A stretch of DNA of 61,292 bases, filler included, from Sphacelaria rigidula (taxonomy: Eukaryota), in assembly GCA_964200075.2 (NCBI GenBank). It is 9 parts of 9 records of this genome, joined end to end, with 100 filler letters (N's around TTAATTAATTAA, not from the genome) between each part and the next. Parts side by side here need not be neighbours in the genome. Positions count along the whole stretch, not along the records: positions 20,467 to 27,187 come from CAXNAA020018420.1; 8 more parts are not named here. One strand, written 5' to 3'. The notes under the pieces are model-generated. The model was not told the origin of the DNA. It searched no databases and worked only from the letters and a program-made list of their open reading frames with translations. Numbering within the stretch: position 1 is the first letter of the stretch; the number at the start of each line of letters is the position of its first letter. Below are positions 6,071-48,400 of the stretch, piece after piece. A program made the translations under genes and the position numbers.

Positions 6071-6376
6071 AAATACAAAGGAGGGTAAGCGTCTCTTTTT
6101 CGCGTCTATGTCTGGGCTGTGTTATAGTAGGGTAAATATAAAGGAAGGTTAGCTTCTCTATTTCATGTCCATGTCCGGGCTGTGTTATGGTAGGTTAACT
6201 AAAAAGAAAGGTTAGTTTCTCTATTTCATGTCTATGTCCGGGCTGTGTTATGGTAGGTTAAATAAAAAGGAGGGTTAGCTTTTGTATTTCACGTCTATGT
6301 CCGAGCTGTGTTATGGTGGGGTAAATAAAACGGGGAGTTAGCTTCTCTATTTCCTGTCTTTGTCCGGGCAGTGTTA
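6071..6376. repeat. Minisatellite, about 5 copies of a ~58-bp unit
   Basis: Recurring GGTTAGCTTCTCTATTTCATGTCTATGTCCGGGCTGTGTTATGGTAGGTTAAATAAAAAGGAG-like unit. Confidence 0.85.
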
Positions 6377-6722
6377 TACTTCCTCTGTCCCATAAGTCTG
6401 TATCGTTATGGACGTTTAATCGTGTGGGCATTTTGATGCTCACGATCATGCTACAGTTGGGCTCGTTAGAGAGATAACGTGCAGACAGAGCTGACTGAGA
6501 AAAAAAAAAAGAACTTGTTTCAAATACTAAAATCATATCAAAATATACCCCATTTTGGCCCTTTTGGGTCCACTTCTACCCCGATGTTGACCGATTTTGG
6601 ACGTTTTGAGGTCGAGCACTCGCGATTACATGCTGAAAAATTGTCAGATGGGGGGGGGTGTAAATTAACGTCTCCGATATATCCAAATCAGTGGTGGTTC
6701 TGCGGTTTTCACATTTGTTTTC

Positions 6723-6822
6723 NNNNNNNNNNNNNNNNNNNNNNNNNNNNNNNNNNNNNNNNNNNNTTAATTAATTAANNNNNNNNNNNNNNNNNNNNNN
6801 NNNNNNNNNNNNNNNNNNNNNN
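6723..6822. other. Artificial contig spacer (N-run + TTAATTAATTAA + N-run); also at 13545-13644, 20367-20466, 27188-27287, 34009-34108, 40830-40929, 47651-47750, 54472-54571
   Basis: Identical 100-bp spacers containing stops in all six frames. The intervening contigs are 6722, 6722, 6722, then six of 6721 bp. Confidence 0.97.
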
Positions 6823-7398: not shown

Positions 7399-8470
7399 CA
7401 TGCATGGAACGCAACAGGACTGCAAAATGATTTGAAAAACTCCCGGCAAAACCATTCAGTAAGTGAAAAAGGCGTGTCCATACCTCGACACACGCAAAAA
7501 ACACAGTAGAACCGCAAAATGTAAAACACCCCCCCCCCTCCCCAAAACAACAGCAGTACGATGGACGTGTCCATGCCCCCGAATAAATACAGCAAATAGG
7601 ACTGCAAAATGGAAAAAACACTCCCCCGACTGAAGGGTCCAGCAAGCCAACGGGCGTGTCTATAGCCAGACATATGCAAAGGATGCAAGAGGACTGCAAA
7701 ATCAAGCACTCACCCGGCAAAATAATCCAGCTGCGAGGTGGGCGCGTGCATACCTCGACACTTGCAAGGAAGCACGACAAGACTCCAAGATGACGAAACT
7801 TCCGCAACAGAACCTCCAGCAGTGCGGTGGCTGTGTTCATACCCAGCCACGTGCAAAGAACGCAACAGGATTGCAAAACCAAAAATAGCTTCTCAACAAA
7901 ACCTTCAGCAGTTGGGATGTCCATACCCCCGACACATGCAAGGAACACAACACAACCGCAAAATACTCCCCCTCCCAAAAGAACTTTCAGCAGTGCGACA
8001 GGCGTGTCCATACTCCAACGCATGCAAGGAACAACACGACAGGACTGCAGAATGAAAACCACTCCCCAGGCAAAACATCCAGCAGTGCGGCGGACGTGTC
8101 CATACCTCGAGGCTTGCGACGCAAAACAGGAGTGCAGATGAAAACCACTCTCAACAACACCTCCAGCAGTGTGGCGGGCGTGTCCGTCCCTCGACACACC
8201 CAAAGTACACAACAAGAGATCGAAATAAAAAAAACCTTTCTCGAGAAAAACTGCAGCAGTGCGGTAGGTGTGTCCATATTTCGACCATGCAAGGAACACA
8301 ACAGAACTGAAGAAAATAAATAATAAAAAAACTCGCCTGCCAAAAGCGTTCAGCAATGTGGTGGACGTGTTCATATCTCACTCAGGGCATGCAAACCAAA
8401 ACAGAACTGTAAAATGAGAAGGAAAAAAAAAAAAAACTCCGCGGCAAATGGGTCCAGCAGTGTGGCAGAC
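7399..8470. repeat. Diverged tandem array, about 12 copies of a ~90-bp unit
   Basis: Unit CATGCAAGGAACACAACAGGACTGCAAAATG...CAGCAGTGCGGCGGGCGTGTCCATACCTCGACA recurs at about 7399, 7491, 7585, 7673, 7761, 7850, 7936, 8021, 8113, 8197, 8286 and 8388. Confidence 0.85.
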
Positions 8471-20240: not shown

Positions 20241-20782
20241 TATTATACTGTTGCTTGGTGTCCGCTGTACAGAGTGTACAGTCCGCACAGCAGAGCAATG
20301 CTACGGTAGGGGTGCACTTTTTTCGCGAAATTTTGTCTGGTTCAGGGGCTCCTAACGTTCTAGACGNNNNNNNNNNNNNNNNNNNNNNNNNNNNNNNNNN
20401 NNNNNNNNNNTTAATTAATTAANNNNNNNNNNNNNNNNNNNNNNNNNNNNNNNNNNNNNNNNNNNNCCAACTCTAAATGTATAAAAGAGCATGGGCCTGC
20501 AAACTTCAAATCCGCCTCTAGGCTGGCCCAGCTCGTAGGGTTGAAAAACCCTGGGACTGAACGCGGTTTACACGAAGGATCGCCGCGTTACCATATCTCT
20601 CTTCCCGAGTAATCGGCGTCTTGGTGTAGCCGTCGATATTGATAACCGTTCTGCCGGGTTAGACTACGTGGAGCATTTCAATACCGCGCAGGAACGATTC
20701 TATCCCGCCCGGGGGGGGGGGTCCGCTGCCTTGCTGACCGCTCTGCCGGGTTAGACCACGTAAGGAGTTCGAAAACCGTTCA

Positions 20783-21395
20783 TCAATTCGACCCCGGAAC
20801 TGCTCCGGTATCCTGCCCATTCACCGCATATTTTTGCACCTCTAACTGCGTCATCTCTTCCCAATCCCCATCCTCATACTTGATACGATAATACGGCTGA
20901 CGGGAATCGAACACTACCCCGTCGAACTCCTGCTGCTCACCTTGGCTGTCCACAAACCGTTTACGGATTTTGGTCCCTCGGGGAATCTGTCGCAAAGCTT
21001 CATCCCGAGCAATAGAGTCTCTTTCTGCTCGAGATGGCGTAACAGATGGGCGTGGTTTGGCTTGCGGGTGATATAGTTCCCACAAGGCATGAAACACGTC
21101 CAGCTGCAACCCAGTGAAACTGTCCAAAACATCCTCCTCAGAAAGCCAGTGGGATTCGGCTCCGTCATGAAATAACCCCCGATAGGCCAAATAAATAAAT
21201 AAAGGCCCACTCCCATGACGATCCTGATCCTAGCGCCACCTTCCTATCTGTCAATGTGTACAGTTGCGGGACGGACTTGATCTCCTCAGCCAACCCCAAA
21301 TCAGCCCCCCATGCTAACTCAGAGTACTCGTTCGACAAGGGATGTCGCAGATGTTCAGGGCGCACATGAAATTTCTTCACATTGGCTGCCGACAC
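20783..21395 (-). pseudogene. Integrase C-terminal extension: chromo-like domain (about 21110-21265) and Tudor-like domain (about 20825-20990)
   Basis: LYTLTDRKVALGSGSSWEWA/YRGLFHDGAESHWLSEEDVL fits a chromo-like pattern once a 19-bp insertion is removed. GTKIRKRF...EFDGVVFDSRQPYYRIKYEDGDWEEMT fits the Tudor-like Y-x-I-x-YEDGD-x-E pattern. Confidence 0.7.
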
Positions 21396-21401
21396 CGTCC
21401 G

Positions 21402-22499
21402 TTATCGTACCTTGCGCCCCTCCATGCTGACCTTAAGGCTTAGACCGGGTATCACCACTTGCTGTACCGTCCATGGTCCCGTCCACAAGTCGTGCACTAG
21501 TTTAGTCGGCACATCTTCGTGTACAAGGTTGCCGTCGGACTCTTTCACTAGCATCGGATCCCCTACCTGAGCTCGCGACCGCGCCGACTGGCGAATCAGC
21601 TCGGCATTTCTAGCCGATCTTACCTCTTCCCTTTGCTTGTGGCGTTGGGTCAACAGCTCGTGAACCTCCTTCAGGCTCTGGCGCTGTTGTTCCACCGTGT
21701 TGTTCAACGGTGGAGACTCCGCTTCAGGTGACACAGCGTCTATTTGGGTGCGTGGCTCGCACCCAAAAAGCAGCTTAAATGGAGTCGGGTTATTAGGCAA
21801 TGCCGGGTCGGGAGTAGTACGGTGAATCCATACAGCGGGGTCTATGTACTCATCCCACCTTTCCGGCCACTGCTTATAGAGCTCGGCTAAAAGGTCGTGC
21901 AACCATCCCCCGTACCTCTCCACCGCCCCCTGACCGCGAGGGTGCTCTGCCGGACCATGATCCAGCTTCACCTTCATCCACTGGCATACATGGTTCACTA
22001 CCTCCGACGTGAACTCCCCCCCAGCGTCACTCCTTAGAAAGTAGGGTACCCCGAACGTCAAGAAGAGCTTCAGCAGACATTTCGCTACGGGTACCGTGAG
22101 CTTGGCAGCCAATGGGGAAGCAAAGAGAAACTTGGTTGCTCGATCCACTATGATCAACGAATACCTGTTACCCGAGGCGGAAACCTGCTTCATGTCCGAT
22201 ATATCCATCTCTAACACGTCCCATGCCCGCAGGAATCGGGCGGGCCGCATCGCTAGGGTGTGACTGTTGGTACACTTGCGTCGGCGACATCCACAAGACA
22301 ACACGTATTTGCGAGTATCGGCGGAAAGACCAGGCCATTCGTACCGTGCGTTAACTACTGCGGTCGTCCTCTTTACTCCGGCGCGCCCGTGCGTAGTGTG
22401 CACCCACGCCAGCAGACCTGGCACTAGGCTGCGTGGGATAGCTAACTCGGCTGGCTCCTTAGGGGAGGTGTACCATAGAAGATTATTCTCATCTAGCAC
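21402..22499 (-). pseudogene. Gypsy integrase (H2C2 zinc-binding region + rve DDE core)
   Basis: HTTHGRAGVKRT...SCGC (degenerate HHCC); catalytic residues in LEMDISD, LRSDAGGEF and GAVER; TPFKLLFG and WTGPWTV motifs. Confidence 0.92.
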
Positions 22500-22849
22500 G
22501 TACCCATCCCGTCTCTTGCCAGCTACTTCATCCGTAGGCCCCTCTTTTAACCTCCAAGACAGAAGTCTCGCTCTTGTAATAAAACGAGTTGCAGTTTGTC
22601 CACCAGGATCGCCCTCGTTTGTTCGAGAACGGTTCTAGGGTTACCTTTACTTGGTATTGGCTCTTCAGCTGAAGCCTCCCCCCCACCCGAGTCCTGGTCC
22701 GACCTATGTTCTGCTTCGGGAACCGACGAGCAAGTTACGGCGGCTCCCCAAGTTTCCAGCAACTCTGCATCCTCATGCGGCCATATAGCCGCAAGCGCAC
22801 TCAGACCTACGTCCTCACTCCGAATCTGAGTCAAACTCAACAAACCTTC

Positions 22850-23750
22850 CGCTTCCAAGCTTGATACAACCCCCCCCCCATCATCCACGGATAAACGAAA
22901 CAAGCCACAATATCTGGCATAGCGTCGGGGTCTACCGTGGGTGGGGTCTCGTAGTGGTCGAGGGTGGTCGCGATTTTCACGAAGTCGACTCTTTCCAGCT
23001 CTACTGCTCCCTCCTATACCCCTGCGTTCGCCCTGTGGGGTGTGAATTCCTCGCGCCGAGGTTTCCCTCTCGTCAGCCGAGGACGAGTTAACCTGGGCAT
23101 CGGATCCTCGAAACTGTGAAAAGCCTTGCCTCGCCCTGTCGGCTCCATGAAGTATGTGCCAGTTCGCCCCAATAGCTGACTCAACGGGGGGCAGGTAACA
23201 GCTTACGCTTCCATTAGCTGCCTCCACGCGCACAGTGGTTCTTCTCCCTGCCGACCAGCCTTCAAAGCGACCACATAGGTCCGTCTCTTCCGGTACGGGG
23301 CGCCCACCTGCACGGCGGAGATGGATGCCTGCTCGATGCAGCAGCCGGCTCCGCTCAGCAACGGAGCCACGCTCTCCTTCCAACCCGGAGAGTGCACCAT
23401 TACACCTGTAATCTCCTAGATCAGAGTTGTCGCCGAGACTGAGCAGAGGAACGACTCGACCAATTCTCGGACACCATCTGCGGATTCCGATTCCCCCGCA
23501 CTTTCATCCACGGAGGCAACCCTACTCGTATCTCCCACCAGCACTTCTGGTTGCACCTCCTCCACGAAGTTGTAGAAAGAAGGCGCCCTGGAGTCGTACG
23601 TACAAGCTTGAATCCCTTTCCAATTCGGTTTATTCTGACACAATCCAACGCCTTCCAATCTGCATCGGTGGCTGCTACCACTTCCAAGAACTTCTCCGCG
23701 GCCAGAACGCTTCCCCCGCCTCCGCAATGGACAGTCAAAGCGGGGGGTCG
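22850..23750 (-). pseudogene. C5 cytosine DNA methyltransferase-like domain inside pol (degenerate active site)
   Basis: Collinear motifs after one frameshift near 23588 and reading through three stops: I ALTVHCGGGG; II/III VVAATDADWKALDCVRIN; IV PEVLVGDTSR; VI LI*EITGV; VIII ISAVQVGAPYRKRRTYVVA; TRD-like HSFEDPMPRL; IX AVELERVDFVKIATTLDHYETP; X DIVACFVYPWMM. Confidence 0.78.
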
Positions 23751-24009
23751 TTGGTTAACCGGTCCGGTCACAGGGTTCTCGGAGTCAATAGTAACCCCGT
23801 CCCCCGTTCCCGGTGGATACAACGCGCTGACCTCCTCCAACGCCAATGCCATCACGTCTGCGGATTCTTTCGGACACTCAGCTTCCAGTTCCTTCGGTAA
23901 CATCCCGTCCTGTTTGGGTCCTTGCGGTCCTCCCCCTCCGCCTGGTCCAGCTTCGGTATCATCGTCAGGGACTGACACGTCAATGTCACTGCCCCTGGGT
24001 TGGCTCACT

Positions 24010-25640
24010 TGCAGCCGGGACAGGGCGTCCGGCAACTGGTGTTCGCGTCCAGCTCTCCACTTGAGGACCATATCATACTCCATCAACCTCAGCGCCCACC
24101 GGTGGAACTTGGGCGACAAGTTTTGACTACGAAACAGCCATGTCAACGCACTGCTATCCGTAACAAGCGTAAACTCTCGCCCCCATAGATACGATCTGAA
24201 TCGCTCCACGGACCACAGAACAACGACTACTTCTCTCTCTGATGCCGATCTTTTTTCATCTGCCCGAGACCATCTATGACTAGCGTATTCGATGATCCAT
24301 TCCCTCTCATCCGCCTCCTGGGCCAGGGCGACCCCTGCTGCGAACTCTGAAGCGTCTGAGTGTAGCACGAATCGTTCATTCCAGTCCGGGTACGCCAAGA
24401 TCGGATACGACATCAGAGCGCTCTTCAAGTCTAGGAATGCTTGTTGCTGCTGGTCCCCCCACGGAATCTCCATCCTCCGCGCTCGCTTGGAGGCGAATCG
24501 CGGGTCTCTCAGTAAGTCTGTGAGCGGTGCCGCCGGGTTACTATCCCCCTTTATGTACCTCCGCAGATATCCAGTCTTACCCAGACACAACCTCAGCTCC
24601 TCTACCCTCTGCGGCTCCCCTAACTGAGCGATAGCTTCGATCTTGGACTGGGAAGGTCGTATTCCCGACGCGTCGATCGTCATCCCTACGAAGTCCTGTT
24701 GCTGGGTGCACCATTGTGATTTCTGGAAATTCACAGTGAGGCCGGCCTTCAGCAAGCTATAGAGCACAACTCTCAACCCCGTCATGTGGCCGGCGAAAGT
24801 CGCACTAGGCCACAAGATATTACCCAACCACTTTTTGACACCCCGCGCCGGCAACAACGCTTCGGATACTGGTCGGTGAAACGTCGCTGGTCTTACTGTG
24901 AGTCCGAATCGACAACGTTGATATTGCCATACGTGCCCCCTCGCATCGCGAAAGGCGGTAAAGGGTCGGTCCTCCTCCGCCACTTCCAACTGGAAAAACC
25001 CACTCGCTGAATCCACACTCGTAAAGTACTTGGATCCCGTTAGGCCACTATACGTGGTCTGCATATCCCCCAAACCACCGCTATACGACTCGAGGAGTTC
25101 GTTTAGTCCACGAAAATCCTGACACAACCGTAAACTACCGTCCTTCTTCCGCACCGTGACGCAAGCAGCTGCCCATGCGGACCTCGACGGCTCAATGGTC
25201 CCCCGCTCCGCGAGTTTCTGGACCTCATCTTGTATAGCTGTTCCTTGTTCTGGCGAGTACCGCCTAGTACCGGCAGCGAATGGCCGGCACCGGTGATCTT
25301 TCAGTCGTGGACGCAACGGTTCCCCACGCGCAGCTTTCACCCGCTTGGGGTCCACCGCGAAAAGACCTGCTTCGTTGATGTCTCTTGACACGGATAACAG
25401 CTGGATCTTTTGCGCCGGACCCAACTGGCCCACGTTCGCTTCCGTGAGATCTACTCCTGTGGCCTCAGTTGTGTCCTTTTCCTCCACTTCCGCCGGTTCC
25501 TGCGACGGTTGGGGAGGGCTCGGCGCAGTCCCTCGATACTCCAGCCTCGACTTAAGCGTGGTGCCCGAGTCGGACACGTTCAGATTTTGCAACCGCTCGC
25601 GATCTCGAACATTCACGGCTACAACCTTCGTCACTACCAT
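24010..25640 (-). pseudogene. Gypsy reverse transcriptase and RNase H
   Basis: SAWAAACVTVRKKDGSLRLCQDFRGLN, YFTSVDSASGFFQ, RCRFGL, and YxDD box degenerate to WLGN. RNase H motifs LHSDASEFAAG, ERE, VTDSSAL, DALSR. Confidence 0.95.
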
Positions 25641-26099
25641 AACTTTTTGTTCACCAGGCGAGCACTCTTGGCCGTGTTGACCACCTTACATACTAACGGC
25701 AACTGTGGATCCCACCACTGCACTCCCCTGGCTACCCCTATCTCGGCTTCCTCCTCTAAATCGAACACTTTCCGAAGTTCGATCAATACGAGTTGACGTT
25801 CCTGCGGTTGAGGACCTAGCACGTAGCCTGAAACTAGCTCGCTAACGAAGCCTTCTAACCGTGGGTCCTCCGTCAGCCGTAGAAGCCACTGAAGTGTAGC
25901 TTCGTCCTCCCACGCCGCTCCAAGGCTTTTCCACACCTCATCCCATGCTGCCAGATCGCTCTCTCCCGACAGCACCCCAGTCGGGTCGTCACTGAGTGCG
26001 CTTGGCTTGACAGCACAGAAGAAATATCACCTTGCCGAATCTCCTTGGCCGGTGAGGTGATCGGTGTCAACAGCTCCGAGTCTTCGTGAACCATTAGAC

Positions 26100-26540
26100 A
26101 CGAATCTTACCCACGGGGCCTCCGGCGAAGGTCGAAATCCTGATCGACCTTCAAAAGACAGTGTGCTCTTGTTCCTTCTAAAGAAACTTGCCCCCAAGAC
26201 AAATCCGTACGGCAATCCATCGACCACCCTAACCCATACTTTACTTACCCTGTCCTTTGGGTGGAACCGAATCGGAATTATCGCTGACCCCAGAATCTTC
26301 ATCGGTGGCGTCCGGCTGTCACTAGGGTTTGCTGCCCTCAGAAATCCTGCTCCCTGTCGCTGTAGCTTGCCTGTTATGTTACCCCAAGTTACCAACGACT
26401 TCCACCACTGCTTTGATGCATAGCTACCCCCCCCCCCCCCCGGCCCCGGTGTCCAGTAACACCATTACTGGTAAACCGAGGCTACTTTTACTGTGATGCC
26501 AAACTCTAGCTTGCACCCACAGTTGCTGTGCATCATTACC
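26100..26540 (-). pseudogene. Retroviral-type aspartic protease
   Basis: VMVLLDTGAGG active-site motif (about 26443-26468), a G-run frameshift, then ...YGFVLGASFF. Confidence 0.85.
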
Positions 26541-26606
26541 TTTCACTGCTGCTAACCTACCCGCCTCTACGCTGTCCCCCGGGGACTGCGGCCCCAGGGC
26601 GCACCT

Positions 26607-27050
26607 TCATTCCTCGCCTGTGGCGTCGAAACGGTTGCTCAGCTCATCAACCGTCTCGACTCCCTCCTCCTCGTCGACGCTTTCCGGTTTGTCCAACCTG
26701 TGGTCGAACCCCCGATCTTCGTTCTGGCTGTCGATTAGTCCGAACAACTCCCCCAGTTGTAGGCTCATCAGCCTATCCCTCTTTGTCTGAGGCCTTACTT
26801 GGGTCTGCTCCGGCTGCTTGTAATAACCGAAGGGAATGCGGTATTTGTCATGGGAGTAGTTGCAGTCATCTGTGTCCTTGCTGCTGCAGTCTCGCCCGTA
26901 CGCGTGGTTGAAGCACACTCCCAGCAATCGTATGGCGACCTCACGCTCCTCCTTGGGTGCATTGCGGGCGGGAAGGAACCCGGTCGCCGGTGCTTCTCCT
27001 CGCGTGTTGAACTTGACATGCTTGGTTTGCTTGGTTGACTCTTGCTTGGT
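26607..27050 (-). pseudogene. gag C-terminal part with CCCH-type zinc finger
   Basis: CFNHAYGRDCSSKDTDDCNYSH (C-x8-C-x7-C-x3-H) immediately upstream of, and in frame with, the protease. Confidence 0.6.
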
Positions 27051-27902
27051 TGATGCACAGCAACTGTAGGTGCAAGCTAGAGTTTGGCACCACAGTAAAA
27101 GTAGCCTCGGTTTACCAGTAACGGTGTTACTGGACACCGGGGCGGGGGGGGGGTGTACTTATGATCATGCATGCCATAGTCATAAGANNNNNNNNNNNNN
27201 NNNNNNNNNNNNNNNNNNNNNNNNNNNNNNNTTAATTAATTAANNNNNNNNNNNNNNNNNNNNNNNNNNNNNNNNNNNNNNNNNNNNGGGCAATCAGGCA
27301 GAAGAAATCGTGAATTTGGTGATTTTGAGTCGTGATGATTTGTCCTAACCGTGGAGTGTTTGCACCAATCGTGTACAGTCGTGATATCCTCATTCAACAG
27401 ATGTGCACTGCGCTTTACCGAAACCCTCGTTGCGTCTCCCAACACTCCCTCAGCTCAACCTCTGACGCTTTCCTGGCATGACACTCTGACCCTGGCTACA
27501 ACAAGCATGCACACCATGTACACGCGATACAAACCGAAAATTATGACGTAGAAGTGGCTAAAGCAAACATCAGGTGACCCAACATATGAACTTACTCGTG
27601 GTTGAGTTGGAAACTAGAACAAAACATTACTGTTGGTTTTCACAGTACCCAATATTACACAAGAGGTGGGGGTATTCAAGTATCGGAGCACATGTTCGCA
27701 CGCACATGTACACGGTACCCAATATGACCAAAGAGATGGAGATATTCAAGCATGGGAGCACATGTGCCCGTGTAATAAGATTCGGCAAATATGTATATTT
27801 GTTTGCGCGTGTGCACATACCAAGTTCGGTATCAAAATTGTTATAACTTGCTTCCGACGGTCGTGTGTACTGCTGTTGAGAAAAAAAGACATCCCCTTTT
27901 CT

Positions 27903-29112: not shown

Positions 29113-29677
29113 TTTACATTTTGTAGCAGTGGAACATAACAGAATCAAACCAGGCCAGTAGTTCGGAACGTGATCAGGCATCTTCGAGTTCAGGACGATT
29201 TCCCCTTACTTGCCTATGGTGTATATGATCTCCCCCAACGTTGTCAGTTATTCTGCCAGTGGAGAGCAGCTCCCCAAAACGTTGGCAGGTGTTCTACAAG
29301 CTCTGAATTGTGTAATACTGCATGTATCATGTCCGGTGAAACACGACTTGGTATTATGCGTTCAAGCTTGTCTGCTTTCGTTCACCTGTGGTACCCTTTC
29401 AAAGCTACTTGTACTTCAGATCCATACTGCCGTATTGGTGAGGAAGTTCCATTCATTCAAAGAACGCTGGGCACTAGAGTTGTAGCCGTGGCGATCTGTT
29501 CATGTAAAGCGTTATTTCAGTAAGTGCAGGTGGCACCTCTTCTCCCCGTTGAAGTGCGACGATAGGCTCTTTTTTCAACTCGATTCTCCTGGAGCTGACA
29601 GAAAACCCTCCGTTGTTTTGCCAATTGTGCTCCCGCGAAATGTTATTTTTCTTCAGGAACACCACGCGGCAGAGCTG

Positions 29678-31492
29678 ATGGCCAGCGTGGCAGAAAGGGA
29701 GTGCATCAACGAGGGCTGCTCGAAGCGGCTATCGTTCGGTGTACCGGGCCACAAAGCGGAGTTTTGCTTGAAGCATGCCAGGGTGGGAATCGTGGATGTG
29801 GTGAGGAAGAAGTGTGGCGACGACGGCTGCTTGAAGAAACCGTCGTATGGTGTAGCAGGAAGCAACAAGGCGGAGTTCTGCTCTCAGCATGCTGAGGCGG
29901 GAATGGTGAATGTGGTGAAGAGGACGTGTGGCGACGAGGTCTGCTCTACCAGGCCGTCGTATGGCGTAGCGGGAAGCAAGAAGGCGGAGTTTTGCTCGAA
30001 GCATGCCGAGGCGGGGATGGTGGATGTGAAGAGGACGTGCGGCGACGAGGGCTGCTCTACAAGGCCGTCGTATGGCGTAGCGGGAAGCAAGAAGGCGGAG
30101 TTCTGCTCTCAGCATACCAGGGCGGGAATGGTGGATGTGGTGAAGAGGAGGTGCGGCGACAAGGGCTGCTCTACAAGGCCGTCGTATGGTGTAGTGGGAA
30201 GCACGAAGGCGGAGCTCTGCTCGAAGCATGCCAGGGCGGGAATGGTGGATGTGGTGACGAAGAAATGCGGCGACGACGGCTGCTCGAAGCAGCCGTCGTA
30301 TGGTGTAGCGGGAAGCAAGAAGGCAGAGTTTTGCTCTCAGCATGCCACGGCGGGAATGGTGGATGTGGTGACGAAGAAATGCGGCGACGACGGCTGCTCG
30401 AAGCAGCCGTCGTATGGTATAGCGGGAAGCAAGAGGGCGAAGTTCTGCAGAACGCACGCCAAGACGGGAATGGTGAACGTGGCGCACAGGACGTGCGGCG
30501 ACGAGGGCTGCTCTACGAGACCGTCGTATGGCGTAGCGGGAAGCAAAAAGGCGGAGTTCTGCTTTCAGCATGTCCGGGCGGGAATGGTGGATGTGGGGAA
30601 GAGGACGTGCGGCGATGAAGGCTGTTCTACAAGGCCGTCGTATGGTGTAGCAGGAAGCAAGAGGGCGGAGTCTTGCTCTCAGCATGCCAGGGCGGGAATG
30701 GTGGATGTGGTGACGAAGAAATGTGGCCACCAGGCCTGCCCCATGCGCCCATCTTGTGGTGTGGCGGGAAGCAAGAAGGCGGAATATTGCAAGAAGGCAG
30801 AATTCTGCTCCCACTATGCCAAGGCGGGGATTGTTCGTGTGGTCAGCTACAGGTCTAGCAAAGAGGGACGCTTGAATCCGGATAATTTCAATAACGACAA
30901 CCTTGATGTCGCAATGTTGTGCCGACAGCATCCCACTGCATATGAAGCAGCTACAGTATACGACATGGAGAACCTCAGCACTGGGGAGGCAACCTCCACC
31001 CGCAGCACAACCGATGGTAGTGAAGGAAGCGTCGCTGGCGTGCGAGGAACAAAACGCAAGCGCGGACCATGCTTGAGTTCTGGTACAGTCGACGTTGTTG
31101 ATGCTCAACGTAGTGTGTCCCCTGTTGCCAGGCGTAGTGGTGTAACACCACTTTTACGCTCGGGCCAGGTACTGTCAGGGGCTGGTCGTGAGGTGTCTTC
31201 CGTGCCAAGGGTAGGAGGAGGAATCAAGGTAGAGGTGTCAGCTCCTTCTCCTACGCACGGTGGTGCTGTGATGGAAGAGTGTAGCAAGCACACTTTCCCT
31301 TTGAGGGGTTGGAGCAGTGCAGGTGGTCAAAGTGGCTCCGGCAGTAATATTTGTGGTGTGAGTGCGGGACGGCTATATTGTTCGCCGGCAGTTGTATGTG
31401 GGTCTCTTGTCCGGTTCGTTGGTGTGGAATCAGTAAAGACGTTGGAGGGTTCAAGCGTGAAGTTGGAGCTAGGAGTTGCGTCCGACAGATGA
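29678..31492 (+). CDS. EsV-1-7 cysteine-rich repeat protein (10 repeats plus 1 degenerate)
   Basis: Uninterrupted ORF with ~38-aa units C-x4-C-x3-PSYGVAGSKKAEFC-x2-H-x3-GMVDV, the EsV-1-7 signature. ATG at 29678. A possible splice acceptor TTTTCTTCAG ends at 29656, so an upstream exon may exist. Confidence 0.92.
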   Translation: MASVAERECINEGCSKRLSFGVPGHKAEFCLKHARVGIVDVVRKKCGDDGCLKKPSYGVAGSNKAEFCSQHAEAGMVNVVKRTCGDEVCSTRPSYGVAGSKKAEFCSKHAEAGMVDVKRTCGDEGCSTRPSYGVAGSKKAEFCSQHTRAGMVDVVKRRCGDKGCSTRPSYGVVGSTKAELCSKHARAGMVDVVTKKCGDDGCSKQPSYGVAGSKKAEFCSQHATAGMVDVVTKKCGDDGCSKQPSYGIAGSKRAKFCRTHAKTGMVNVAHRTCGDEGCSTRPSYGVAGSKKAEFCFQHVRAGMVDVGKRTCGDEGCSTRPSYGVAGSKRAESCSQHARAGMVDVVTKKCGHQACPMRPSCGVAGSKKAEYCKKAEFCSHYAKAGIVRVVSYRSSKEGRLNPDNFNNDNLDVAMLCRQHPTAYEAATVYDMENLSTGEATSTRSTTDGSEGSVAGVRGTKRKRGPCLSSGTVDVVDAQRSVSPVARRSGVTPLLRSGQVLSGAGREVSSVPRVGGGIKVEVSAPSPTHGGAVMEECSKHTFPLRGWSSAGGQSGSGSNICGVSAGRLYCSPAVVCGSLVRFVGVESVKTLEGSSVKLELGVASDR

Positions 31493-33720: not shown

Positions 33721-35139
33721 TAACTCTTAGATAGCGACACCCCCGCAGGCGGTTTGTAATTGAATATACTCACACTCAATGATGGATGCATGTAATCAGG
33801 CCTGGATGCATGGGAAATGGATATTGTGGTTGGTTTATGACGTATGGGTGAAGGGGAAATAAGAGATACAGTTCTGTTATCAAGGGCATATACCCGATTT
33901 GTTGGTTGCAGCAGGGATCCGCTGAGAGGCACACGCCCAATCGCGTGGCCAAGGAATTAGGTTCTGACGTGTTGTTTTCCTACATGAGTGGCTCTTAATG
34001 ATTGACCANNNNNNNNNNNNNNNNNNNNNNNNNNNNNNNNNNNNNNNNNNNNTTAATTAATTAANNNNNNNNNNNNNNNNNNNNNNNNNNNNNNNNNNNN
34101 NNNNNNNNATAAAAAAAAGACTCACTTAAAGCGAATGAACAAAGCCACTCTCAATCGTAACATCTACTCTCAATCTCACGAAAACACTGTTATATGTAGA
34201 ACAGACAGAGTGGATGAAGAGAGAAAAAAAAGGAAAGAAAGAATGGAACAAAACAAGAATTCTGTAAATGACCGCCCTCCGAAAAATGGCTTCGGCGGAA
34301 GAGGTCTTGCGCAAAAAGCACACTCATATACCCGATTGTACAAAACAAAACGGCCTGCGGTTCATTTATGTCGACCTGGATATAAGAAGTACCTGAATAT
34401 TAGGCTTAGAGCTCTTGTAAACAAAACTTCGTGTCTAAAGATCCGAATTATTCTCCTGATATATTTTCGCGGTATACGATGATATCTTTGATTAGTACTG
34501 TTCGAGTGACGGAAGCATTTCCTATCCAACAAGCACACTATACACAGGATGACGCTGCACTACCGCACTCTACCATGATGTATGCCTGAGCGGTGTACAC
34601 AGTACGATGCTCTTGGAGTGTACGCCCTACGAATGTGCACTGCGAGGCGTGCTGCCATCGCGCGGAGGTCAAGATATATGCCCTACCGGCGCATGTTGAT
34701 CCCGATTTGTGGTCACCAGGGAACAACTTGTTCGCGGATTTGGGTAATTGGAGTTCGGGGTTGGGTTGGGTCACTGGCGAGGAATTTGATTTCTACCTCA
34801 CGGGGATAGCAAACTGGCCCGAGCCTGTGGAGCGCTTCGCACACATCGATGTTCATACCACGAGTGGACGTCTTTGACAGATGTTCCAGAGAAGCAGCCC
34901 ATTCGAATATAGGCATAACAGATCCGTGAAGGGTCATCCATGTCCCAGACGGACATTTTAGGCCGACGTTCGTACGGTGGTGCAGATGGAGATTCACATG
35001 CCATAGGCAGGTTCATATCCAGATGGAGATCGATAACCCAGATGGAGGTCAAGATCCCAGGTGGATCGCCCAGATGGACCTGGGATTGTAGATGAATATA
35101 CCGGATTGATTCATCAATTGATCAATATATATATATATA

Positions 35140-36692
35140 TATATGTACATGTATCATTTCGCAGTTTTCACCACTTTTGCCGAGTGTTCTCTGGCTGCAA
35201 GGTATCTTAGCCCGCGCTTTCTTTTGCAGTGCACAATGGAGGGTCAGCGGTACATTACAGTTCAGGTTTGGGTGTCATCTGATACCTGTGGCGCGTGTTC
35301 TTGCCATCGAAAGTCGCCCACGCTGGCTCTTTTTCGCGGGGTGTTGATCCCGAACTACAAAAGCCTTTCCAAGATCGTCGAAAACTTCAAACAAGAGCCA
35401 CAAAAGCCCGCTCACATGGCGGGGTATTTTTTCACCGTGATTTTCTTTGCGTTCTCGATGATTTGGGAACACGAAGACAGTGGTTATGCAGCGAATGTCA
35501 CGAGAACATGAGAGCGAAGCAGTTGAAAATCGCTGGACATTGCCTTGACTTAGTCAGCGGCAAACACAAGTGGAATGATCTGAGACCCCTTCTCATTTAG
35601 TTTTGACGTGAAGCCTCTAACACGGTCATATCTGCGTAATATGTGCCCCACTTATGCGAACGTAACAATCCACAAAAAAAGCATCGTGAAGAACACTGAA
35701 GAATGTGTAAATTGGTATTAGAGGAAGGGGTCACAGCCACAGCTGCAGCAGGGGAAGTCGCTGATGGCCCGGTGTGCATTGATACGGCGAATACCCACGG
35801 TGCGTGGCATTTTGTTTTTTCAACACCCTGCTGTCAAATGACGGCTAGATAGAGTGGGTACAGTGATAGTTGATCACGCAGGCTGCGACGGATCCTGCCG
35901 GCCTCATCATCAACCTTCGCCTAGTTATGGACGAACGCTCGAAGAAACCCAGCGAATAAGCATCGTTTATGGTCCGCTACATAGGTCTATGTGAGGGTTG
36001 GGAGCTGAACACTTCCTCCTCAAAAATCTCGACAGTCGAAGATTGAGCTCCTGTCGCGCGACCAGTGGGAAGTGCTGCGGACTCTTGCCGGCGTACCTGG
36101 CACTGGGGGCGATATCCCGGTACAGACAGTCCCAACACTACCGGGACGGCCGTGTACAAGCCGGCAGCCGGACTGGCCGTTGCACTGGTGTTCTTCTAGC
36201 GTTAAAAACTTAGAGTACGGCCGCACAGGCTTTGCACGCGAATATTTCGGTGACTGCCTCACATCCAATTCGGCCATGTGCTGTGGATTATTTGATTATT
36301 TCACGATCTCACCGCCTCATATGTATGGAAATGTATTACACCCTAGACGAGAGCTTTCTACAGTCAGTATAAAATTTGAAAGCATGTACTGTGCACAGTA
36401 TAGAAGCTATTGCTTTCTGCGACGTGCACAATACTCGTACAAAAGTGGGAACAGCGCGCAGTATGACTTCGAGACAGTGTAGAAATCTCCACGCGGTATG
36501 AATTGTCACAGCCGGCTTGCGCGCCATAGCGGCTGTGTTACCATCCGCTCAATATACAGAGGCGACCTATTACTCTTGCGTGCAACACCCAGGGCAAATG
36601 CACACTTAGCTGCAACACCGACCGCTGTACTAGATGTGGCAGAGCGAGGGGTGGTACACCACGTACACACAGACAGCAAGCAATATCATACA
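35140..36692. mobile_element. Unclassified ~1.55-kb interspersed element, copy 1
   Basis: Collinear over its full length with the reverse complement of 44033-45592. Flanked by (TA)n on both sides. Confidence 0.8.
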
Positions 36693-44032: not shown

Positions 44033-45592
44033 GTATGATACTGCTTGCTGTCTGTGTGTACGTGGTGTACCATCCCTCGCTCCGCCACATCTAGTACAGC
44101 GGTCGGTGTTGCAGCTAAGCATGCATTAGCCCTAGGTGGCGCACGCAGGGGTTATAGGCCGCCTCTGCCGCTATAATTCCTGCCTGTATCTTGAGCGGAG
44201 CTGTATGGTAAGACAGCCGCTATGGCGCGCAAGCCGGCTATAACAGTTCATACCGCGTGGAGATTTCTACACTGTCTTCAAGTGATACTGCGCGCAGTTT
44301 CCACTACGAGTATTGCGCACATCGCAGTAGGCAATAGCTTCCATACTGTGCACAGTATATTCTTTTAAAATTGTATTCTGGCTGTTGAAAGCTCTTGTTC
44401 AGGGTGCAGTTCATTTCCACACATCTTAGGCGGTGAGATCGTGAAATAATTCACAGCACATGGCCGAAGTGGAAGTGAGGCAATCACCGAAATATTCACG
44501 TGCTAAGCCTGTGCGACCGTAGTCTCAAGTTGATGGCGCTAGAAGAACACCAGTGCATAGTCCATCCCGGCTGCCGGCTTGTTTGCACGGCCGTCCCGGT
44601 AGTGATGAAACCGTCTGCACCGGGATGTCGCCCCCAGTGCCAGGTATGCCGGCAAGGGTCCGTGGCACTACCCACTGGTCGCGCGACAGGAGCTTAACCT
44701 GCGACTGTCGAGATTTTTGAAGCGGGAATGTTCAGCTCCCAACCCTCACATATATACCGGACCATAAACGATGCTTGCTTGCTGGGTTTCTTCGAGCGTT
44801 CATCATAACTGGGCGAAGATTGATGATGGGGCCGGCAGGATCCGTCGCAGCCTGCGTGCTCAACTGCCTATGTACCCACTATAGCCGTCATCAGGCAGCA
44901 GGATGTTGGAAAAAAAAAATGCCATGCTCCGTGGTTACGCACCGTATCAATGCAGACCGGGCCATCAGCGACTTCCCCCGCTGCAGCTGTGACAGTGACA
45001 CCTTCCTCTAATACCAATCTACAGATTCTCCAATGATCTTCAACATGCTTCTGTGGACAGTTGGGTTCGCATACCTAGGACCCACATTACGCAGATATGA
45101 CCGTGTTGGAGGCTTCACGTCAATACTAAATATTAAGGCATCTCAGATCATTCGACTTGTGTTTGCTGCTGACTAAGGGCAAGGCAATGTTCAAGTGTTT
45201 TCAACTGCTTTGCTCTCATGTTCTCGTGACGTTCGCTGCATGACCGCTGTCTTCGTGCTCCCGAGTCAACGAGAACTCAAAGAAAATTACGGTGAAAAAT
45301 CCCCCGCCATGAACAAGCTTTTTGTTGTTCGGGTTTCTGTTCGAAGTTTTCCACGATCTTGAAAAGGCTTCTGTGGTTCGGGATCGAACACCCCGCGGAA
45401 AAGGTCCAGATTGGGCGACTTCCGGTGGCCAGAACACGCGTCGCAGTTATCAGATGACACCCAAACCTGAACGGTAATATACCGCTGCGCCATCTTCGTG
45501 TGCTGCAAAAGAAAGCGCGGGATAAAATGCCTGGCTGCCAGAGAAAACGCGGCAAAGGTGGTGAAAAATGTGAAATGATACATGTACATATA
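44033..45592. mobile_element. Unclassified ~1.55-kb interspersed element, copy 2
   Basis: Reverse-complement homolog of 35140-36692. Confidence 0.8.
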
Positions 45593-47750
45593 TGAATATC
45601 AATATGTTCAATAGTGATGTCGATTAGCACACGAGTGGAGCGTGCTACCTGCTATCGTTCAAGCCCAACATTATTGTTCTCGTAGCGTCACAAAATGATG
45701 TGATTTTCGCTGCTCTTGGCTTCGTCTTTACCCTAGACTTCTGGGAGACGACTGAAGTGCCCCCGAGAGCACCTGAACGTCCCTGAGAGTACTTGAGCTT
45801 GTTGTGCGTCCGGAAACGAGAAGGACGATACCGTGCGCGATGACGGCTGTTGTAGAATACTAGACCGCTCCTAGGATTGTCTACAACATCTTCTGCAGCG
45901 ATGAGTTCGGGATTTCCGCCGGTCATCGGCCACCACGCGCGATCATGGCGTCCGCGGATACTAGTCGCGTCTGTAGGTTATTTACAGCCTCTACTGCCGC
46001 GGAAAATTCGGTAGTTCCGCTGGTCATCGCTCCTCGCTCGATATGTGGACGGTTCTATGTCCTCAGCATATCATAATATCTCTATGGCTTGTCCGGGGCG
46101 CATTACCTTAAAGTGCCGCCTTTCGTCGACAATATACTACGTACAAAGACGTTCACCGTAGGATACAAGACGTATCTGAAGTTTGTCTTCGTCATCTATT
46201 GCTGCTGTGAGTGCAGTAACTCCGCCGGCCTTCGCCTCTAACCCGGTGTCCAGACGTGTTTGTATGTTCAACGATCATGATCTCAGCAGGCCTCTCTTGC
46301 TGTCGACACTTTACACTGCTCGTAAAACCGCCTCCACGAAATTGAATATACGAAGCACGCTACCACGCACGACCGTAGGATACTAGGTAGATCTTGCTGT
46401 GCATTCTCTACGGCATCTACTGCCGCTGTCAGTGCAGTCTTCACGTTGGTCATCGCTTGTCCCCCGATGTGTCCACTTGTCCGTGCTCTCTTACATAGTC
46501 ATGATCTAGGCGATCAAGCGTTCCTTGTGGAGCACATGTGCCTTCCAAATTTGCGTTTTTTCAAGCACACGACCACATGCGATGACTGCGACTAAGGGTA
46601 CTTACTTTACCTGTGTGAGCTTTTTTTCCACGGCATCCCCGGGGCACATTCATTTCTTACACTTGCCTGTACAAACACTGTTAATCTTGGGCCATACTAC
46701 TCGTTACTCGGCCCCTTGTGTTGCACTCCCCCGGAAACAAAGACTGGCTACTCGTCTACCGCCGTTAAGGTAGAACCCGGTACATGGCTAAGAATGAAGC
46801 AGCAGTAGTAGTACCGTACTCGTATCGTAGTTAGACATACTTGTTACCGCAGCTCGTATTATGTGGCGTACATACCTTCGATAGGTCGTGGATCTGTTTA
46901 GAGCACGAATTCGTGAATATATCAGGCGACAAGCGATGGTCTGGGGAAATACTGCAGTGACCATAGCTACCGTAGACAACACACAGCAAGGTCTAGTATC
47001 GTACGGTCGCGCGTGGTAGCGTGCTCCCTACGTTCCATTGTCAGAGGCACTTGAGCACAATGTGCCCCCGGAAAAGACCTATGGAGATCATGGTTAGAAA
47101 TACGTTCACGTTTTTATATCGGATGAGAAACGGTTACCAGCAGCAGTACTGCACCCACAACTGGAAAGGATGCCGCAGTTAGCCCTCAGTCACGTCTGGT
47201 GTCCTGCAGTACCCGCCATCGCGGGTGGTGGCGTTGTATATAGTTTCTATCTTCGGGGCACTTCAGCTGCATATTTAGCTTCATAAGACGACCTGTGTGG
47301 AGAGATTGTTATCGAGAGCACGAACCCGTCTGCACATCGACCGAGAAGCAATGAACAGGCTACCCTCAAGCAGGTCCAGTATTCTACGGTCGCCGTCGTC
47401 GTGCGGGAAACTCGTGCCCATACCGCGAAAATAGTGCGTATGCTTGCTCCGTGTCCAGTAGAATACTCACTACTCTCAATACACGAAGCACCTTCGGTTT
47501 CAGAGGTGCACCTACAGTACGTCCCGCAGCCGACTCGGTAGGATTTGGGGGTACCGTCCCCCCTTCCCCCTTCCAATAAAAATAAAGCAACTCATTGTAG
47601 GCTGGTATCCAAATGCAAGATGATCAGTAGGCTTCGGGCCGAACAATCTTNNNNNNNNNNNNNNNNNNNNNNNNNNNNNNNNNNNNNNNNNNNNTTAATT
47701 AATTAANNNNNNNNNNNNNNNNNNNNNNNNNNNNNNNNNNNNNNNNNNNN

Positions 47751-47878
47751 TGTTGTTGTTGTTGTTGTTGTTGTTGCTGTTGCTATTGCTGTCGTGATGG
47801 CTGCTGCTTCGGCTGCTGTTTTGGTCGTTGTAGTTGTTGTGGTCGTTGTTGTCGTTGATGTGATGGTTGTGGTTGTGG

Positions 47879-47946
<68 letters not shown>

Positions 47947-48196
47947 GCTGTTGCTATTGCTGTCGTGATGGCTGCTGCTTCGGCTGCTGTTGTGGTCGTT
48001 GTAGTTGTTGTGGTCGTTGTTGTCGTTGATGTGATGGTTGTGGTTGTGGTTGTTGTTGTTGTTGTTGTTGTTGTTGGTGTGGTGGTGGTGGTGGTGGTCG
48101 TCGTCGTCGTTGTCGTTGTGGTCGTTGTTGTTGTTGTAGTTGTGATCGTTGTTAATGTGGTGGTGGTGGTTGTGGTTGTTGTTGTAGTAGTTGTGG

Positions 48197-48230
<34 letters not shown>

Positions 48231-48400
48231 GATGGTTGCTGCTGCTGCTGTTGTGGTCGTTGTAGTTGTAGTTGTTGTGGTCGTTGTGGTTGTTGTAGTT
48301 GTTGCGGTCGTTGTGGCCGTTGTAGTTGTGGTCGTTGTGGTCGTTGTTGCTATTGTTACCCATATGAATGATGGTGGTGTTATTGTTGTTATTGATGATC
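47751..48400. repeat. Compound trinucleotide microsatellite (GTT/GTG/GTC/GCT)n with an internal duplication
   Basis: Long (GTT)n tracts. Block GCTGTTGCTATTGCTGTCGTGATGGCTGCTGCTTCGG occurs twice (about 47776 and 47947). Confidence 0.95.

Follow-up and report, generated by a model that had tools for sequence, protein, structure and literature searches.

The window analysed here, the whole stretch of 61,292 nucleotides of Sphacelaria rigidula DNA, consists of contigs of ~6.7 kb joined by spacers of the form N44-TTAATTAATTAA-N44, the first at 6723-6822 and the others following every ~6822 bases; the resulting 6.8-kb periodicity is an artefact of the joining. The piece at 20467-27187, identified as CAXNAA020018420.1 (G000:C18420, 100% match), holds a copy of a Ty3/Gypsy LTR retrotransposon on the minus strand (20533..27043). 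The limits of the copy are the points where similarity to other copies begins and ends. Its 5′ end is cut inside gag, its 3′ end falls just before the polypurine tract, and no LTRs are left in it. Pfam searches identified, all on the minus strand, a reverse transcriptase (RT; 24675..25154, RVT_1, E 1.7e-10), an RNase H (24075..24461, RT_RNaseH_2, E 2.1e-27, and RT_RNaseH, E 6.7e-26), the zinc-binding domain of an integrase (22293..22439, Integrase_H2C2, E 4.3e-9), the integrase core (21939..22217, rve, E 2e-7, slightly below the curated cut-off) and a C-terminal Tudor domain (20834..20977, PTM_DIR17_Tudor, E 8.3e-7). An aspartic protease-like motif, LLDTGA (26442..26459, minus strand), was spotted by eye in the translation close to a break in the frame, and Pfam gave no match for it. 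The assignment to Ty3/Gypsy (Metaviridae) follows from the PR-RT-RH-IN order seen here together with the remaining hallmarks found in other copies, which have LTRs of 633-662 bp with TG..CA ends, PBS-like and PPT-like flanks and 4-bp target duplications.

The copy at 20533..27043 is dead by virtue of its frameshifts, stops and truncation. In the domain described in the next section, the frame shifts by 1 base near 23583, is interrupted by three stops and takes up 2 additional bases near 22870. An initial annotation of this DNA had described the RT, RNase H and integrase as only lightly decayed. This was accurate in that the codons read contain no stops, but the RT catalytic motif at ~24830, intact in most of the 26 copies read, is disrupted here, and the element has lost both its ends. 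On its 5′ side it is flanked (27051-27154) by an inverted fragment of the gag region of the same family. Short repeats of very high copy number abut both element ends, where positions 20495-20537 and 27144-27180 showed extreme depth and many loose ends in the sequencing runs. The 3′ untranslated region includes a short direct repeat of ~50-70 bp (20599-20697), which other copies have too.

Other features of the window were a 668-amino-acid open frame on the plus strand with 10 EsV-1-7 cysteine-rich repeats in 114-bp tandem units (29486-31492), two inverted copies of a ~1.5 kb repeat on different contigs (35124-36691 and 44033-45608, 84-90% alike), a (TGT)n-type microsatellite tract with open frames in several phases (47751-48357), a degenerate tandem array of 84-97-bp units (7460-8375) and a 63-bp array of 4.9 copies (6071-6377).

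A predicted C5 DNA-methyltransferase fold within Pol

Between the RNase H and the integrase there is a region of ~1.6 kb without Pfam annotation. It contains a C5 DNA-methyltransferase (C5-MTase)-fold domain of ~310 amino acids (22821..23753, minus strand) that lies within Pol, in frame in unbroken copies. Open frames of 952 and 781 amino acids in other copies run from the RNase H or its linker through this domain into the integrase. The presence of a methyltransferase-like domain had been noted before at 23230..23750; such a domain does lie there, but its limits are 22821-23753, which leaves motifs IX and X outside the interval proposed at first.

Pfam gave no DNA_methylase (PF00145) match for the window or for three unbroken copies. 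Sequence searches of the PDB found nothing relevant for the domain, and one relative reached only E 0.19-0.2 to DNMT2. Word-indexed protein searches with the domain returned nothing at E 0.001, and a locus scan of metagenomes gave 114 pattern matches, of which 0 were confirmed. The ESM Atlas was queried with a local copy and with a relative from Cladosiphon, both of which were placed with PF00145 in 30/30 matches (at 0.95 for the local copy). A profile built from 22 unbroken pieces led to 112 relatives, and among the 36 scanned, one (P0044, 23.2 bits) passed the PF00145 cut-off. Phage C5-MTases matched the domain in profile-profile alignments at E 1e-7 to 7e-5.

A structure model of the domain, calculated from an 83-row alignment (10 local pieces and 73 of the 112 relatives), had a pLDDT of 87.7 and a pTM of 0.87. 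A fold predicted from the single sequence had a pLDDT of 33 and was discarded. Foldseek gave an E-value of 1.7e-10, and the C5-MTase family accounted for 44/44 PDB rows among the matches listed. Comparison of the model with HaeIII, HhaI, DNMT1 and DNMT2 yielded Z scores of 20.1-23.1 and rmsd values of 3.2-4.0 over 254-277 aligned residues, and the best viral match was BFVD entry A0A8S5PVD1 (TM 0.77, E 5.5e-16). The domain has a Rossmann core, a target-recognition region and motifs I-X in order. These results indicate that 22821-23753 encodes what the model predicts to be a complete C5 DNA-methyltransferase fold, and that the likeness is not due to chance. Since the fold scores to bacterial enzymes, DNMT1 and DNMT2 were tied, they do not name the donor. 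Two Bacteroidetes phage C5-MTases, L144 and L145, appeared as weak matches of a relative; they have motif I CFACGGGS, motif X LIGMSVPP and an intact Pro-Cys. At non-significant E-values, they are a possible lead to the type of donor.

Catalytic motifs in this copy and across the family

Copies in the genome were surveyed by a protein search, which gave 133 matches among 129 of the 222 candidates scored. Motifs were tallied at 72 loci, with motif IV readable in 64, motif VI in 63, motifs VIII and X in 65 and motif I in 31, and a codon-level survey read motif IV fully in 69/81 loci.

From this single copy, it had been proposed that several catalytic motifs are substituted. All coordinates that follow are on the minus strand. 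Motif IV reads VLVGDTSR (23544-23521), that is, GDTSR with no Pro-Cys, and this reading is typical of the family (G in 55, D in 55, T in 52, S in 47 and R in 60 of the 64 loci read). The catalytic loop (positions 75-91) contained a Cys in 0/69 copies read, and when the genome was searched with two Cys-type relatives the top matches were the same Cys-less family. Motif VIII (APYRKRRTY, 23301-23275) reads YRKRR instead of Q-x-R-x-R, with Tyr at the Gln site in 62, Lys at the first Arg site in 58 and the second Arg kept in 57 of 65 copies. Motif I (LTVHCGGGG, 23738-23712) keeps GxG and has His at the Phe site, as do 29/31 copies. Two other substitutions are in the sequence as claimed but are partly private to this copy. 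In motif VI (LI*EITGV, 23424-23401), the Glu is kept and the next two residues are not NV, giving EIT in place of ENV; an in-frame stop lies just before the Glu here. Among 63 copies read, the Glu was found in 57 and was followed by Ser in 52 and by Ile in 1. In the motif X-like segment (DIVACFVYP, 22914-22888), AC stands in place of GN and is shared with just one other copy; among 65 copies, Ala was found in 62, and the next residue was Asn in 23, Ser in 22 and Cys in 2.

The acidic residue of motif II (23658..23678) is kept, and the family copies have Asp in 69/69 codons read. A motif IX-like helix (22969..22998) was recognized in the translation and by profile-profile alignment. With respect to SAM binding, GxG and the motif II acid are kept, the motif I Phe is lost and motif X is altered.

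Motif IV lacks its Cys family-wide, so this copy inherited the loss of Pro-Cys; EIT and AC are in part its own. The view that the loss of catalytic motifs goes beyond recent decay holds family-wide, with the qualification that changes private to this copy enter into two of the five motif readings. The other copies restored neither PCQ nor ENV, which would have been the mark of an active enzyme mutated in this copy. As the motif VI Glu and the second motif VIII Arg are kept, the active site appears to have been remodelled, not erased.

Relatives outside this genome

A protein from Cladosiphon okamuranus has the same RT-RH-domain-integrase-Tudor order, and lineages at ~30% identity still have the whole fold, including the target-recognition region and motif X. 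The outside rows of the alignments include some close kin of the S. rigidula family and many possibly dead copies. Pro-Cys was found in none of them (30 rows in one alignment, 34 in another). Loop position 78 was Cys in 13, Ser in 11 and Tyr in 3 of 30 outside rows; position 79 was Arg in 24 and Cys in 2 of 29, and Cys in 4/34 in the second alignment. Given a Cys at loop position 78 or 79 in some outside rows, some members of the clade may have activity. The strand register of the model (strand 72-76), read with HhaI numbering, places position 78 at the Pro site and position 79 at the Cys site; in profile alignments, the residue matched to the catalytic Cys is either the Ser or the Arg after it. 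Whichever register holds, this family has no thiol at the catalytic site.

In a subclade (support 99) that includes P0041, P0044, P0048 and P0079, the canonical nucleophile position is occupied by Cys in 4/5 rows, without the Pro, and motif VI of P0044 reads ENP. These four relatives appear to be the best candidates for real activity. Ser at loop position 78 occurs at three separate places on the tree of the relatives, which was midpoint-rooted and does not fix the order of Cys loss. The residue at loop position 78 tends to go with the one that follows the motif VI Glu: both were Cys in 8 outside rows, both were Ser in 6 and the rest were mixed, counts that are not corrected for kinship. The counterparts of these two residues are described as being in contact in M.HhaI (PMC4802922).

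The motif VI Glu was present in 42/48 outside rows, the second motif VIII Arg site was Arg in 48 and Lys in 10 of 65, the motif II residue was Asp or Glu in 13/13, and the motif I Gly residues were found in 8/9 and 10/11. The motif I Phe was seen in 0/7 and the motif VIII Gln in 0/64. Position 76 (window ~23530), the site of the second Gly of motif IV, was Asp or Asn in 31/31 outside rows. By the strand register of the model, this position would be a new conserved polar residue of the pocket, adjoining the motif VI Glu.

Selection on the domain

Quartets of copies were compared, and a change was counted as inherited when the copies of one subfamily had it in common and those of another subfamily differed. 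The dN/dS values were obtained by the Nei-Gojobori method with Jukes-Cantor correction, and codons beside indels were dropped. In 5/5 comparisons among four full-length subfamilies, which share branches and are not independent, the dN/dS of the domain was 0.15-0.20 (kappa 1) or 0.19-0.29 (kappa 4), with an upper 95% bound of at most 0.42. A deleted subfamily served as neutral control. It comprises 39 loci (L064, L066, L071-L077 and others) without most of RT, RNase H and motif I, and the dN/dS of the same domain was 0.92-2.09. A value of about 1, which the initial annotation had associated with a neutral relic, was thus found in the control and not in the full-length subfamilies. These substitution patterns indicate that the C5-MTase-fold domain is under purifying selection. 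The control subfamily is non-autonomous, with one shared deletion that extends from early RT to motif II of the domain, and was amplified though its remaining coding parts are neutral.

The constraint on the domain is 3-5 times weaker than that on RT, RNase H and integrase (dN/dS 0.03-0.10), and the flanking linkers (0.06-0.24) are as constrained as the domain. Variable sites numbered 137/295 in the domain versus 25/81 and 33/74 in the flanking linkers. Conservation of the pocket residues above the domain average was not significant in this genome (4/13 variable, P 0.19).

Footprints of methylation and host methyltransferases

Private C-to-T changes at CpG amounted to 96/4355 (2.2%) versus 1.96-2.62% in other contexts, and in the deleted subfamily they ranged across contexts from 1.8 to 3.05%. 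The CpG o/e ratio in the copies was 0.95. No deamination or RIP-like footprint was seen in the copies, with no C-to-T excess in any dinucleotide context. Target duplications were collected from 58 LTRs, excluding 3 that were unclassified and 9 tandem junctions; they were A/T-centred in 27/46. A CpG preference at these target sites was not seen, with CG in 1/46 duplications versus 0.158 expected and CG steps in 29/468 beside the duplications versus 124/2285 further off. Nine of the 58 LTRs (L202, L208, L218, L221, L229, L231, L240, L241 and L255) have the polypurine tract on one side and the primer site on the other and are read as head-to-tail tandem elements sharing one LTR.

The host genome was searched in six frames with PF00145, a search that finely split genes could escape, and the only matches were two exons, which we take from their motifs to be DNMT2-like. 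Brown algae are reported to have lost every DNA methyltransferase but DNMT2 (PMC13076208) and to be without, or nearly without, 5mC (bioRxiv 10.1101/2024.02.19.579948), and a DNMT1 is described in Discosporangium (bioRxiv 10.1101/2024.02.19.579948).

Discussion

We lean toward the explanation that the domain is a non-methylating pseudo-DNMT within Pol, predicted to serve as a nucleic-acid-binding module. The absence of a loop Cys from 69 copies and a dN/dS well below 1 support the original suggestion of a catalytically dead, repurposed pseudo-enzyme. The predicted fold, its position in Pol with the same domain order in Cladosiphon okamuranus, the flat C-to-T pattern and a genome whose only PF00145 matches are DNMT2-like agree with it as well. 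In C5 methylation, the motif IV Cys attacks C6 while a Glu and an Arg hold the flipped base (PMC4802922, PMC5699548). A family that lacks that Cys and retains the Glu and the Arg is therefore read here as a non-methylating nucleic-acid-binding module. In the sequence of events that we propose, a C5 cytosine methyltransferase would have been captured by the element and made as part of Pol. With the Cys-C6 adduct no longer possible, the domain would not methylate by the normal route, and its fold would have been retained as a nucleic-acid-binding module. It may travel in the particle alongside RT and integrase and grip DNA, which could be the new cDNA or, jointly with the Tudor domain, the target DNA. 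A cytosine would probably be held by the motif VI Glu and the motif VIII Arg, as in Cys-less mutants of bacterial C5-MTases; M.EcoRII with its Cys changed to Ala is reported to bind DNA tightly (PMC4437897). Catalysis may have become dispensable after the hosts lost cytosine methylation. The domain would thus work like a Cys-less C5-MTase, yet it falls outside the active family. Several results count against this reading: the domain is no more constrained than its flanking linkers and less so than RT, RNase H and integrase, its pocket residues do not stand out by conservation in this genome, the target sites show no CpG preference, and several outside lineages have a Cys near the catalytic position.

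A broader history can be put forward only tentatively. An old brown-algal clade of Tudor-Gypsy elements might have turned a captured C5-MTase into a base-flipping DNA reader or an enzyme with a new Cys-independent chemistry, paired on one Pol with a histone reader. In hosts that have lost their own enzyme, the Cys-retaining subclade could then represent the last remaining DNA C5-methylase.

The domain could instead be a structural passenger or a protein scaffold, with a contact surface like that of DNMT3L, a host pseudo-DNMT with a non-catalytic C5-MTase fold. It would then be retained only for the sake of an in-frame, foldable Pol or for that surface, with no role for a nucleic-acid pocket. 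We find this rather unlikely. It agrees with a dN/dS and a site variability equal to those of the flanking linkers, with the lack of significant extra conservation at pocket sites within this genome and with a motif I Phe gone from all rows read, but it does not account well for a whole fold that persists at ~30% identity with its target-recognition region and motif X, or for the retention of surface residues of the catalytic site that have no obvious folding role (the Glu, the Arg or Lys at 58/65 and the motif II acid).

An altered chemistry seems less probable still. The domain would bind SAM or a related cofactor and act on cytosine or RNA without Pro-Cys, and the sister lineages that have a Cys may be genuine methylases whose hosts are supposed to have none. 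C5-MTases with a Cys-to-Ser change show residual activity, which speaks for such chemistry, as do the retained GxG, motif II acid, motif VI Glu and motif VIII Arg, the new Asp or Asn at position 76 and the subclade with a Cys at the canonical position. However, no dinucleotide context shows a C-to-T excess, the Cys-to-Ser change is repeated on the tree, the C81S mutant of M.HhaI is reported to give no covalent adduct (PMC3089467), and 5mC is described as absent or nearly so in brown algae (bioRxiv 10.1101/2024.02.19.579948).

A decoy role, with a host silencing factor or the host DNMT2 outcompeted or sequestered by the domain, is very improbable: beyond the fold and the selection nothing fits this idea, the genome search with PF00145 and the published survey (PMC13076208) point to no DNA-acting host C5-MTase as competitor, and a decoy would act in trans, whereas this domain is fused into Pol. 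A neutral relic, or an active enzyme decayed in this copy alone, can be practically dismissed, barring a subfamily with Pro-Cys that escaped the sampling, since the copy is indeed dead but the motif changes are family-wide and the dN/dS is far under 1 versus ~1 in the neutral control.

A non-methylating nucleic-acid-binding module can be compared with several known systems. Retrotransposon DNMTs have been described in KnitGypsy-Dnmt3, SymbioDIRS-Dnmt3 and SymbioLINE-Dnmt (de Mendoza et al. 2018, PMC5890265), which likewise have a C5-DNMT domain under purifying selection in a retrotransposon ORF (Pol for the Gypsy and DIRS types). Those elements are reported to keep the key catalytic residues and to carry out de novo CG methylation in methylated hosts (PMC5890265); in the Sphacelaria domain, Pro-Cys is absent, PF00145 is blind to it and the host is apparently unmethylated. 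The accessible parts of that article make no mention of Ectocarpus or stramenopiles. Gypsy-10_Ec32 of Ectocarpus (PMC12477816) resembles the element in its C-terminal Tudor domain, 4-bp target duplication, many deletion derivatives and LTR of ~636 bp versus 633-662 bp here, a likeness by description and not by sequence. This anatomy, the EsV-1-7 repeats of the window and the Cladosiphon relative all point to a brown-algal host. No C5-methyltransferase domain is named for it in the portions of the text and supplementary text of PMC12477816 that were searched. The EpiLTRs of Cymbomonas and Euglena (bioRxiv 10.64898/2026.05.21.726589) are also LTR elements that combine a DNMT domain with a Royal-family chromatin reader, but unlike the Sphacelaria element they are described with a DAM domain too, a chromodomain and a DNMT sister to DNMT4. 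A brown alga or stramenopile is not mentioned in the available parts of that preprint.

Host pseudo-DNMTs such as DRM3 (PMC2965745) and DNMT3B3 (PMC7608744) are also reported to have a C5-MTase fold without catalysis that is kept by selection. They assist an active paralogue, whereas no active DNA-acting partner was found here and the domain is transposon-encoded. The whole-length fold and the motif order I-X are shared with M.HhaI, M.HaeIII, Dcm-like and phage C5-MTases, from which the domain differs in its low identity (9-18%) and in having no Pro-Cys, motif I Phe or motif VIII Gln. The transposon-borne DNMTs known so far are described as catalytically intact (PMC5890265, bioRxiv 10.64898/2026.05.21.726589). 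In the portion of the literature consulted, we found no brown-algal retrotransposon reported to carry a DNMT with an altered catalytic site; Iyer et al. 2011, to which de Mendoza et al. refer for DNMT-RT fusions, could mention one.

A DNMT fold hidden in brown-algal retrotransposons and invisible to Pfam qualifies the picture of a loss of all DNMTs except DNMT2 in these algae. Transposon-borne DNMTs have been explained, in the sources seen, by self-methylation of the cDNA. A fold that outlived its nucleophile in an apparently unmethylated host suggests that the domain gives the element something besides methylation, and the natural Cys-type and Ser-type variants would make the question of why retrotransposons capture DNMTs a testable one.
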